Virus record (IMG/VR): IMGVR_UViG_3300029798_000001
Origin: a virus
Taxonomy: Duplodnaviria > Caudoviricetes
DNA: 64,000 nucleotides
Reading direction: 5' to 3' (one strand)
Below the pieces are notes generated by a model. The model had not been told where the DNA came from and did no database searches. It saw nothing but the letters and a program-made list of their open reading frames with translations. Position 1 is the stretch's first letter; the number at the start of each line of letters is the position of its first letter. The position numbers and the translations under genes were made by a program. Below are positions 259 through 9,171 of this stretch, one piece after another.

Positions 259-560
259 TGGATTTTATTTTTGAAACAGCCGGCAATGCTTGGTTGTATA
301 TTAAGAAGGACTATACAGAAAATCGCATTCGATTTTTTGTCGAGTTGTTTAGCTGGGCATGTAGTGTAGTAAGTGCTGTAATCTTTGCGGCCACCGTGCC
401 TACCGTACCGGTAATTCCGCTTTATACTATTTTTATTAGTGGGTGCTGTGCAGCCGCATGGACCTGCTGGACCCGTGGTAGTTTTGGATTGTTGGCCAAC
501 TATGTCTTTTTAATTACTATAGACTGCATTGGCCTTATCCGGATGATGCTAAATCATTAA
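258..560 (+). CDS. Small multi-pass membrane protein
   Basis: TAATG overlap with upstream stop gives start 258; three hydrophobic segments. Confidence 0.6.
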   Translation: MDFIFETAGNAWLYIKKDYTENRIRFFVELFSWACSVVSAVIFAATVPTVPVIPLYTIFISGCCAAAWTCWTRGSFGLLANYVFLITIDCIGLIRMMLNH

Positions 561-748
561 TCTGGCTTTGGGCCTCGTGGCTTACGGGCAGTTTTAGCCT
601 TAACGGCTGGTTTCTTTTCTGCCTTGGGTTTAGCAGTAGTGGCCTTGGGAACTACTACCTTTTTAACTGCCGGTGCTTCAACTTTGTACGGTGCAGGTGT
701 TACTTCTGGTTCTGCCGCCCCAAAAATCTTCTTTAAAAATGATAGCAT
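557..748 (-). CDS. Lys/Ala/Pro-rich histone H1-like basic protein
   Basis: AGGAG SD before ATG at 748; MLSFLKKIFG...KPKAEKKPAVKAKTARKPRGPK. Confidence 0.6.
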   Translation of the reverse strand: MLSFLKKIFGAAEPEVTPAPYKVEAPAVKKVVVPKATTAKPKAEKKPAVKAKTARKPRGPKPD

Positions 749-805
749 GATAAATCTCCTTGTATAATATTTAGTGTTTTTGCTTGTCATTAAACTTTAA
801 TATTA

Positions 806-828
806 ATGTGGCAATGCAATGATAAATA
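806..828 (+). promoter_or_regulatory. ATGT(G/T)GCA-NN-GCAA operator-like box adjacent to TAAATA promoter (copy 1)
   Basis: atgtggcaatgcaa 806-819, TAAATA 823-828; second copy at 1708-1729. Confidence 0.45.
823..828 (+). promoter_or_regulatory. T4-late-like promoter class TAA(A/G)TA (representative copy)
   Basis: Intergenic just before genes: + 823, 1724, 2168, 9043, 9161, 36891, 38242, 39897, 41587, 48623, 55973, 58523; - 4523, 5449, 16413, 55859; precedes structural genes, as T4 TATAAATA does. Confidence 0.65.
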
Positions 829-875
829 TCATGGTAAACACTTAGATGGTTATATCACAAAAGGAGACACCAAAA

Positions 876-1016
876 ATGTCAAAATTATTACAACAATTTA
901 CCAAATTGTTTTCAGCCCAGCAATCTAGACTAGAAGCATTTATGAACGCCAAAGCACCAAAATCACATGCTGATGCAGAATATTGGCAAAAGTATTTTGA
1001 ATACAGGGGTATGTAA
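876..1016 (+). CDS. 46-aa DUF3563-like small protein (not in ORF track)
   Basis: AAGGAG SD; MSKLLQQFTKLFSAQQSRLEAFMNAKAPKSHADAEYWQKYFEYRGM; family call from recalled pattern. Confidence 0.5.
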   Translation: MSKLLQQFTKLFSAQQSRLEAFMNAKAPKSHADAEYWQKYFEYRGM

Positions 1017-1017
1017 C

Positions 1018-1107
1018 ATGTGCCGATATCTTAAAATATTCTGGGAAGCATTTTGCGAAGCTCGTATCGAAGCTGCCAAGGCTCGAGTGCATTACCATAG
1101 CTATTAA
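1018..1107 (+). CDS. 29-aa small ORF
   Basis: MCRYLKIFWEAFCEARIEAAKARVHYHSY fits exactly between two genes with 1-nt gaps. Confidence 0.4.
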   Translation: MCRYLKIFWEAFCEARIEAAKARVHYHSY

Positions 1108-1108
1108 C

Positions 1109-1666
1109 ATGCTAGCCACACGCTTTTTGCCCATCCAAGATTTTGCTCTCTACGGAAATTGGCTCCGCGAGCAATCTAGCGATACGCTGGCCACCTATTT
1201 TGGTGTTGCTACTGGCCCTGCGTTTATTGATAATTTAATAGAACGCATACTCAGCAATCCCAAAGAACACCATTTTTTAGTGGCTACATATGGTACTCAG
1301 TGGGTAGGAGTTATTCATATGGCCCGAATATCCAAACAAGATATGGAGTTTGGTATCATGGTAGCAGAAGACTCTCGTCATCAAGGTATCGCAGATCAGT
1401 TGCTAGATGAAGCAATTAATTGGATACGCAATCGCGGGTTTAATACACTGTATCTACACTGTTTAAACCGCAACTCTGCTATGAAACACTTAGCTACAAA
1501 GCACGGATTAGAAGTACACGAAGATCACGGCGATGCAGAAGTGGTTACTCGTGTACCACCCCCGAGTGTGCTTACCTATGCTCAAGAAGCATTTACAGCC
1601 AATAAAAATATTTTCTTTATGAATCTACAGCATGCATGGCGCCCGTTTGGCGAAATGCTTGGCTGA
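1109..1666 (+). CDS. GNAT family N-acetyltransferase
   Basis: Acetyl-CoA motif V...SRHQGIADQLL; C-terminal NSAMKHLATKHG. Confidence 0.85.
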   Translation: MLATRFLPIQDFALYGNWLREQSSDTLATYFGVATGPAFIDNLIERILSNPKEHHFLVATYGTQWVGVIHMARISKQDMEFGIMVAEDSRHQGIADQLLDEAINWIRNRGFNTLYLHCLNRNSAMKHLATKHGLEVHEDHGDAEVVTRVPPPSVLTYAQEAFTANKNIFFMNLQHAWRPFGEMLG

Positions 1667-1707
1667 TATGGTCAATTTTGCCAAAATCCATTATATTAAT
1701 ATATTTT

Positions 1708-1729
1708 ATGTTGCATCGCAAGGTAAATA
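1708..1729 (+). promoter_or_regulatory. ATGTTGCA-TC-GCAA operator-like box adjacent to TAAATA promoter (copy 2)
   Basis: TTGC-N3-GCAA palindrome 1711-1721, TAAATA 1724-1729, upstream of phasin-like gene. Confidence 0.45.
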
Positions 1730-1810
1730 AGTGTACAATAGAAACATGTTCACTGCAGGTGCCGATAGTCGGGCCTGTAAAGCATAAATTGTCCAAAAAG
1801 GAGATTTACC

Positions 1811-2062
1811 ATGACAACATTTAATTTTGACACATTCAAAGAAGCATTAAACCCAGCTAAGTTTATTGACCAAGCTGAAAAGAACACACAGGCTATTTTG
1901 GCCTATGTAGAACCAAAAGAACTCAGCAAGACTTTGGTTACATTGACATCCGATGTTAGTGATTTTATTCGCTCACAAGTAGAAGCATTTAACTCTATTA
2001 CAGCTATTGCTAAAACACAAGCTGAATCATTTACAAATCAGTTTGCTAAATTAGCCAAGTAA
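1811..2062 (+). CDS. Phasin-like amphipathic helical protein
   Basis: 83 aa, all-helical amphipathic pattern, no Cys/Trp, F..Q...F periodicity; strong AAGGAG SD. Confidence 0.4.
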   Translation: MTTFNFDTFKEALNPAKFIDQAEKNTQAILAYVEPKELSKTLVTLTSDVSDFIRSQVEAFNSITAIAKTQAESFTNQFAKLAK

Positions 2063-8843: not shown

Positions 8844-9019
8844 TGACAAATCCTATTCCGTTAAATGGTATGTTTGTTACCCCAAATAGTCTTGCTGATC
8901 TGGTCGAAATGATTGACCAAATTGGCACGCCAGAAGAACAGCGTATGGCATGGCTAGGTGCAAGTATGGCCCTAAATCTAGCTCATATGCTACACGAAAA
9001 ATCTTTAATGACGGTGTAA
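8843..9019 (+). CDS. 58-aa small protein ending LMTV (not in track)
   Basis: TAATG-coupled; MTNPIPLNGMFVTP...EKSLMTV. Confidence 0.55.
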   Translation: MTNPIPLNGMFVTPNSLADLVEMIDQIGTPEEQRMAWLGASMALNLAHMLHEKSLMTV

Positions 9020-9031
9020 TGCAAGTGTAAT
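9014..9031 (+). promoter_or_regulatory. Pho-box-like 11-bp-spaced direct repeat
   Basis: GTGTAAT-gcaa-GTGTAAT versus PhoB consensus CTGTCAT-N4-CTGT(C/A)A(C/T). Confidence 0.4.
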
Positions 9032-9048
9032 AATATACATACTAAATA

Positions 9049-9118
9049 GAAATGCGGGCACAAGATAAGGTGTCGCTAGATCCGTAACTAGCACTAAAGA
9101 GCCCTGGCTCTTTTTTTA
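9049..9118 (+). ncRNA. Candidate small RNA (hairpin plus intrinsic terminator) upstream of plcP-like gene
   Basis: After TAAATA 9043; GTG-TC-GCTAG/ATCCGTAA/CTAGC-AC hairpin, then AAAGAGC-CCTG-GCTCTTT and T-run. Confidence 0.45.
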
Positions 9119-9120
9119 TG

Positions 9121-9138
9121 GCGTAATAAAATTGTCAT
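9121..9138 (+). promoter_or_regulatory. Pho-box-like element
   Basis: GCGTAAT-AAAA-TTGTCAT, close to PhoB consensus, 33 nt upstream of plcP-like ATG. Confidence 0.5.
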
Positions 9139-9171
9139 ATCTTTTTCTCTGGCATTGCAGTAAATAAGCGT

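Follow-up and report, generated by a model that had tools for sequence, protein, structure and literature searches.

Two short boxes near the start of the window, by which we mean the whole 64,000-nucleotide stretch analysed here from the tailed-phage record IMGVR_UViG_3300029798_000001, are with good support the same element and putative PhaR/PhbF-type operators. PhaR is a proteobacterial repressor that couples phasin expression to the presence of polyhydroxybutyrate (PHB) granules, and the PhaR of the host is the likely reader of the phage boxes. We consider it probable that host PhaR represses the two phage transcription units behind the boxes, that PHB synthesis derepresses them, and that their products act on the granules or on storage metabolism. 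The identity of the motif, its conservation among related phages and its distribution in bacteria were observed directly. An earlier, sequence-only reading of this DNA had described two units in which each TAAATA is closely preceded by the same box, and its coordinates and open reading frames (ORFs) were confirmed. The features are given below; aa stands for amino acids, nt for nucleotides, p46 and p83 for the 46-aa and 83-aa proteins, and the box consensus tested is TG[N]TGC[N]3GCAA.

806-819, plus strand: box 1, ATGTGGCAATGCAA, putative PhaR-type operator with 1 mismatch to the consensus
823-828, plus strand: TAAATA, 3 nt downstream of box 1, T4-late-like or -10-like; (C)ATAAATA is kept in relatives
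876-1016, plus strand: p46, DUF3563-like small protein, first gene of the box-1 operon
1018-1107, plus strand: 29-aa ORF, translationally coupled
1109-1666, plus strand: GNAT N-acetyltransferase, 185 aa, last gene of the box-1 operon (PF00583, E 2.4e-12; phrog_1249)
1708-1721, plus strand: box 2, ATGTTGCATCGCAA, exact match to the footprinted PhaR/PhbF motif, with the dyad TTGC-ATC-GCAA
1724-1729, plus strand: TAAATA after box 2
1811-2062, plus strand: p83, all-helical protein behind box 2, candidate granule-associated or phasin-like protein

From 876 to 1666 the three ORFs follow each other closely, as in an operon. Within the window, a box with at most one mismatch lies directly upstream of 2/44 TAAATA elements, solely at the sites of box 1 and box 2. 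A sigma54 reading of TGGCA...TGCA was ruled out, as the spacing from GG to GC is 6 nt instead of 10.

The consensus was derived from twelve PHB-gene promoters of Herbaspirillum seropedicae, in which PhbF, 83% identical to PhaR of R. eutropha, was DNase-footprinted on it (Kadowaki et al., PMC3206438). PhbF represses phaP1 and phbF and binds PHB granules in this bacterium, and a passage of the same paper cites CTGC-N3-GCAG as the PhaR site of R. sphaeroides (PMC3206438).

The window comes from an uncultured T4-related jumbo phage whose family is widespread in freshwater. Its relatives are IMG/VR contigs of up to ~350 kb, some of them with terminal repeats, and by the clamp loader the nearest cultured phages are the PA5oct-like Pseudomonas jumbo phages (51% identity). 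Megablast of 8 kb of the window against GenBank phages gave no DNA-level match, and tblastn of p83, a bacterial phasin and a 531-aa neighbour against 50,697 GenBank phages matched nothing. Among the close relatives the box upstream of the 83-aa gene is kept in 9/9, so that box 2 precedes every p83 homologue examined there, and the site is more strongly conserved than its flanking sequence; three of them have a second box immediately before ATAAATA, in the same arrangement as the window. The position of box 1 is kept too: the TGC/GCA boxes there are degenerate in the close relatives, and the identical 14-mer of box 1 precedes a p46 homologue in the distant relatives L041, L044 and L045, in the spacer of a perfect TTGACA-17-TATAAT promoter. 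Conservation in related phages, which the sequence-only reading had named as a check on its proposal, is thus found at both boxes.

The phage-family consensus over 76 related loci is a 7-3-7 dyad, ATGTTGC-N3-GCAACAT. Within 160 nt upstream, an exact box stands before 18/37 distinct p83-like genes versus 13/1154 control ORFs, and with at most one mismatch allowed the counts are 31/37 versus 63/1154. The operator is retained before members of the p83 family of ~25% protein identity, in other genomic neighbourhoods; for instance, a p83-like gene with its operator stands directly upstream of one or two ClpP genes in other phages (L356, L358, L359). The p83 cassette moves between genomic neighbourhoods. 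The full dyad (at most one mismatch) occurs in 1-6 copies per phage genome, and the complete 344-kb relative G001 has three exact matches to the motif, of which the one that is intergenic lies at the p83 gene.

The same motif was found before bacterial genes. In a blind scan for the 17-nt dyad in 185,579 bacterial species genomes, which gave at least 120 loci, Phasin_2 was the largest family of flanking ORFs among the matches listed (7 loci, E 1e-21 to 1e-29, plus L112). The runner-up among these matches was a short-chain dehydrogenase (adh_short, ~250-290 aa) in 3 loci (L134, L173, L215), possibly an acetoacetyl-CoA reductase of the phaB type that PhaR controls. Phasin genes were also drawn by family from a sample of Burkholderiales, the order of one dyad-scan genome (a metagenome-assembled genome). 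The exact box was present within 300 nt upstream of 15/29 of these phasin genes versus a background of 3 per 86 kb, and TGC-N3-GCA was present in the same range before 28/29. The motif also preceded phaR in 3/5 genomes. Moreover, the exact box preceded 10/24 DUF3563 genes of Burkholderiales (loci L217-L240) versus 1 per 66 kb, ~100 times the background; one of these loci without a box, L230, is from genome G036, which was left out of the phasin and GNAT tables, and without it the count is 10/23. The background of the exact motif in Burkholderiales is 0.02-0.03 per kb. The exact fit of box 2 to the PhbF motif, together with the enrichment of this motif before bacterial phasin, phaR and DUF3563 genes, supports the assignment of the boxes to PhaR in the sequence-only reading.

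PHB_acc_N, the DNA-binding domain of PhaR, was found in 5/5 bacterial genomes tested (E ~1e-28 to 1e-30). Five records of related phages, of which three are at least 90% complete, gave no match to it, PHB_acc_N being the only domain sought. Host PhaR is therefore the simplest candidate reader of the phage sites.

The first gene of the box-1 operon probably encodes a remote relative of DUF3563. By hhalign, the phage family of p46 (alignment A6) matched bacterial DUF3563 (A7) over the full length with 73% probability (E 3.1e-5), supporting the likeness noticed earlier, and one distant orthologue among 16 relatives matched PF12086 at E 0.026. The 46-aa protein of the window alone gave no Pfam hit, in which it differs from the bacterial members, and an NCBIfam scan of p46 relatives gave nothing. 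Like bacterial DUF3563 (PF12086), p46 is a stand-alone small ORF (46 aa versus 46-58 aa), shares with it the pattern L-E-x-[FY]-[IL] ... A-[DE]-[VL]-E ... E, and has a PhaR-type box upstream, as the DUF3563 genes of Burkholderiales do. The boxes before these genes suggest that DUF3563 is a member of the bacterial PhaR regulon. DUF3563 was present in 21/151 genomes of the order Burkholderiales versus 1/201 of alphaproteobacteria, a distribution that points weakly to a betaproteobacterial origin or host. In the open-access full-text literature we found no paper mentioning DUF3563, and likewise neither a link between DUF3563 and PhaR nor a phage-borne DUF3563.

The gene behind box 2 belongs to a large family with 705 environmental homologues, all of them unnamed. 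The sequence-only reading had called its product phasin-like, and the search for a phasin identity of 1811-2062 that it had proposed gave no significant phasin match with Pfam, NCBIfam, hhalign or Foldseek. The p83 of the window had no Pfam match at E≤1; NCBIfam scans of its relatives gave nothing, with no TIGRFAM phasin match either; and hhalign comparison of the p83 families with sets of 7 and, later, 32 real phasins was not significant, with an inconsistent register (1.5-3.3% probability, P 0.013-0.035). A HMMER profile of p83 against 1.8 billion representatives (50% clustering) retrieved 18 matches, all of them short members of this family, with no canonical phasin among them. The AlphaFold2 model has three helices with a predicted local distance difference test score of 79. 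Foldseek of this model against the Protein Data Bank (PDB) returned nothing at E≤0.001, only generic helical hairpins, and a sequence search of the profile against PDB chains gave chance-level matches only. On the other side, Phasin_2 is the most frequent weak Pfam match in the p83 family (8/25 members, best E 0.0036), though its best score of ~16 bits is below the cut-off of 24.9, and in six-frame scans of two relatives the same p83 gene weakly matches Phasin_2. Moreover, the two top-ranking matches of the family hidden Markov model (HMM) among 4002 bacterial ORFs are verified phasins (E 0.017 and 0.063). Compared with Phasin_2 (PF09361), p83 is likewise small, helical, predicted to be highly expressed and placed behind a PhaR-type box, and it has a weak local similarity to the conserved K-D-x-Q-E-L...L-Q region; unlike Phasin_2, it has about half the usual length (83 aa versus 170-220 aa). 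Judged from the operator context, the chance that p83 works on PHB granules appears to be about even. We found no relevant report on phage phasins in the open-access full-text literature.

The region around box 2 holds further elements that bear on transcription and translation of the 83-aa gene.

1678-1705, plus strand: sigma70-like promoter match, TTGCCA-16-TATATT, 10/12; its start point would fall inside box 2
1734-1739, plus strand: TACAAT, which with TTGCAT at 1711-1716 makes a weak sigma70-like promoter with a 17-bp spacer, 8/12
1756-1777, plus strand: conserved hairpin in the 5' leader of the 83-aa gene

Most close relatives have the box within a canonical TTG(a/c)AA...TATAAT promoter, in its 17-bp spacer, and ATAAATA follows this promoter. 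Such a place within sigma70 promoters would be the position of a repressor. The layout of TTGCAT/TACAAT and TAAATA around box 2 recurs in L035, L049 and L050, and a repressor on box 2 would be expected to obstruct any of the nearby promoter candidates. The two promoters of the window had been taken for late ones; this is not clearly so, since the promoters in close relatives are of the canonical sigma70 type and carry the box in their spacer. The leader hairpin, which was also seen at L358:3945-3965, shows compensatory changes (alignment A1), with GCCGA/TCGGG in most sequences and GCCAA/TTGGG in L001 and L009. Between the hairpin and the 83-aa gene stands a strong ribosome-binding site, AGGAGATTTACCATG, which is invariant.

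With regard to the other genes of the box-1 operon, the GNAT protein matches PF00583 with 47.6 bits versus a cut-off of 20.7. Its gene is syntenic in relatives, and it stands directly behind a box in L039, where the 46-aa gene is absent. The locus L220:1501-2735 of the bacterial genome G088 combines a PhaR-type box with a gene for DUF3563, a 131-aa ORF and a gene for a GNAT that is 29% identical to the phage GNAT, all in the same orientation; we found no other bacterial counterpart of the phage operon. Related to the 29-aa ORF is a third class of tiny ORFs of 38-44 aa with the motif A-x-L-(A/S)-R-(N/Q)-G, which follow PhaR-type boxes in L035:3227-3349, L075:3454-3585, L003 and L006.

On the other side of box 1 there is a conserved divergent gene.

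557-790, minus strand: 77-aa protein with the amphipathic N-terminus MLSFLKKIFG and a Lys/Pro/Ala-rich tail

In its homologues (L041:9945-10226, L056:12767-13075, L063:11051-11317), the N-terminus reads ML(S/T)F(L/I)KK and the tail is repetitive and rich in Lys, Pro and Ala. Their orientation in relatives is always divergent from a box, and distant relatives have a single perfect dyad between the 77-aa gene and a divergent p83-like gene. The 77-aa protein and its relatives had no family match in Pfam or NCBIfam. The Lys-rich tail resembles, as we presume, the DNA-binding tails of PhaF and PhaM. The 77-aa gene is possibly a member of the module.

The sequence-only reading had also pointed to a weaker box abutting a TAAATA at 9161. 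The box, GGCATTGCAG, is indeed present in the window beside TAAATA, but otherwise only in near-identical copies, and it was not conserved in 80 related plcP loci (L241-L320). Instead, the plcP promoters of relatives have conserved CTGTAAY direct repeats, which are Pho-box-like, before GCGATAAATA (window 9014-9171; L241-L320). These repeats suggest that the phage family also uses another host regulator.

On the reading that we favour, host PhaR would sit on boxes that overlap or abut the promoters and block transcription of unit (a), which comprises the 29-aa ORF and the genes for the DUF3563-like peptide and the GNAT, as well as of unit (b), which encodes the helical p83; a third PhaR target may be the divergent gene for the Lys-rich 77-aa protein. 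PhaR leaves DNA for nascent PHB surfaces when a cell makes PHB. PHB made in the infected cell would accordingly draw PhaR to the granules, which would allow expression of the phage genes. The cassettes may represent PhaR-regulon genes that were captured together with their operator from a betaproteobacterial (Burkholderiales-type) host. The most likely roles of the products would be those of granule-surface proteins and of an acetyltransferase acting on granule-associated or storage metabolism, while a redirection of carbon or acetyl-CoA by them is speculation.

Several points weigh against this reading. The motif is not enriched in the window as such (19 sites with at most one mismatch versus 17.5 expected), so that the significance of the boxes rests on position and conservation, and the mismatch of box 1 falls within a conserved TGC triplet. 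Upstream of its p83 gene, the window lacks the canonical sigma70 promoter that its relatives have, and what is left there is a T4-late-like promoter or a weak match to sigma70. Among bacterial GNAT homologues (28-36% identity), 2/18 have an upstream box, a count on which we rejected a general association of GNAT with PhaR in bacteria, and only G088 has a neighbouring DUF3563 gene. The identities of auxiliary metabolic genes carry no host signal, TctC with 28-31% identity being uninformative for host inference. The phasin scores of the family HMM are sums of short repeated helical matches, and p83 is not demonstrably a phasin and is not filed as one here. PhaR binding, PHB-dependent derepression and the roles of the products are what we infer from comparison of sequences.

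A dimeric repressor of an unrecognised family, encoded by the phage itself, might bind the dyad, with the likeness to PhaR being coincidental or PhaR having been replaced after capture. The site has the form of a classic dyad and lies in the spacers of promoters, and jumbo phages have hundreds of uncharacterised ORFs, among which only PHB_acc_N was sought; yet the same motif stands before bacterial phasin, phaR and DUF3563 genes, a DUF3563 homologue is among the phage genes behind it, three near-complete relatives gave no PhaR domain, and the retention of the operator across differing neighbourhoods fits a factor supplied by the host. We hold such a phage repressor to be unlikely. It is quite improbable, in our judgement, that the operators are inert, having been carried in with captured host genes, and that expression is set by the TAAATA phage promoters alone, independently of PHB. 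T4-type late transcription works without a -35 element, TAAATA follows both boxes, and the window has lost the sigma70 promoter of its relatives, all of which this explanation would accommodate. It is disfavoured because the site outlasts the protein sequence, being kept while the protein diverges to ~25% identity; in addition, the site is better conserved than its flanks, and some relatives have two boxes, one per promoter.

The boxes might also act as a decoy, in that replicating phage DNA would multiply the operators, titrate host PhaR and derepress the phasin/PHB regulon of the host, the downstream genes being secondary. PhaR is autoregulated and scarce, and each genome copy has two or three high-quality operators. 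Repression of phbF by PhbF (PMC3206438) counts for the decoy as a case of such autoregulation in a PHB repressor circuit. The operators are, however, always associated with promoters and directly upstream of specific conserved genes, and titration is compatible with repression by PhaR, adding to it rather than replacing it; as the primary function it has very little probability. A separate question is whether p83 is related to granules at all. It could be a proteostasis or late structural protein that merely carries the operator, a possibility that we take seriously without favouring it: the gene is directly upstream of paired ClpP genes in other phages, and comparison with phasins by hhalign and the search for a fold gave no significant match. 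Against it stand the consistent presence of one gene class behind a phasin-type operator, the 8/25 members with Phasin_2 as their weak Pfam match, and the two true phasins ranked first by the family HMM.

Beyond control by host PhaR, a broader picture may be drawn only tentatively. Freshwater jumbo phages might read the storage state of the host via PhaR and express a granule tool-kit only in PHB-accumulating cells, consisting of a minimal phasin-like coat, the DUF3563 peptide, the acetyltransferase and a Lys-rich tether, which would remodel or mobilise PHB and titrate PhaR, with DUF3563 in the PhaR regulon. In the open-access full-text literature, we found no report of a PhaR-type operator on a phage and no published case of a phage gating genes on a stored-carbon polymer of its host. 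If the reading is true, the status of storage granules joins the signals sensed by lytic phages, and PHB would be a resource or an obstacle during infection in lakes, where the more than 700 environmental homologues of p83 may be relevant. It would also give a first functional handle on two orphan families, DUF3563 and p83. The PhaR-type boxes before DUF3563 genes across Burkholderiales make the suggested place of DUF3563 in the PhaR regulon directly testable in Cupriavidus or Herbaspirillum.

Finally, the phage system can be compared with two known ones. It resembles the PhaR/PhbF circuit of H. seropedicae (PMC3206438) in the motif, with TGC and GCA triplets three bases apart, in the position overlapping promoters, though the window offers nearby only TAAATA and sigma70 matches of lesser strength, and in the bacterial genes behind the motif, i.e. 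those for phasin and phaR. It differs in that the phage operators are on a lytic-type jumbo genome, no phaR was found in related records, the genes behind them encode a DUF3563-like peptide, a GNAT and an 83-aa protein below phasin thresholds, and binding is here a prediction.

Boxes for host regulators are known on auxiliary genes of phages, as in cyanophages, whose Pho boxes and NtcA sites borrow PhoB and NtcA of the host. Unlike these, the regulator proposed here is a repressor sensing a storage polymer and not a two-component activator. The systems are nevertheless alike in that a lytic phage would wire a regulator of host nutrient status to its auxiliary genes, and the phage family of the window itself has Pho-box-like repeats before plcP.

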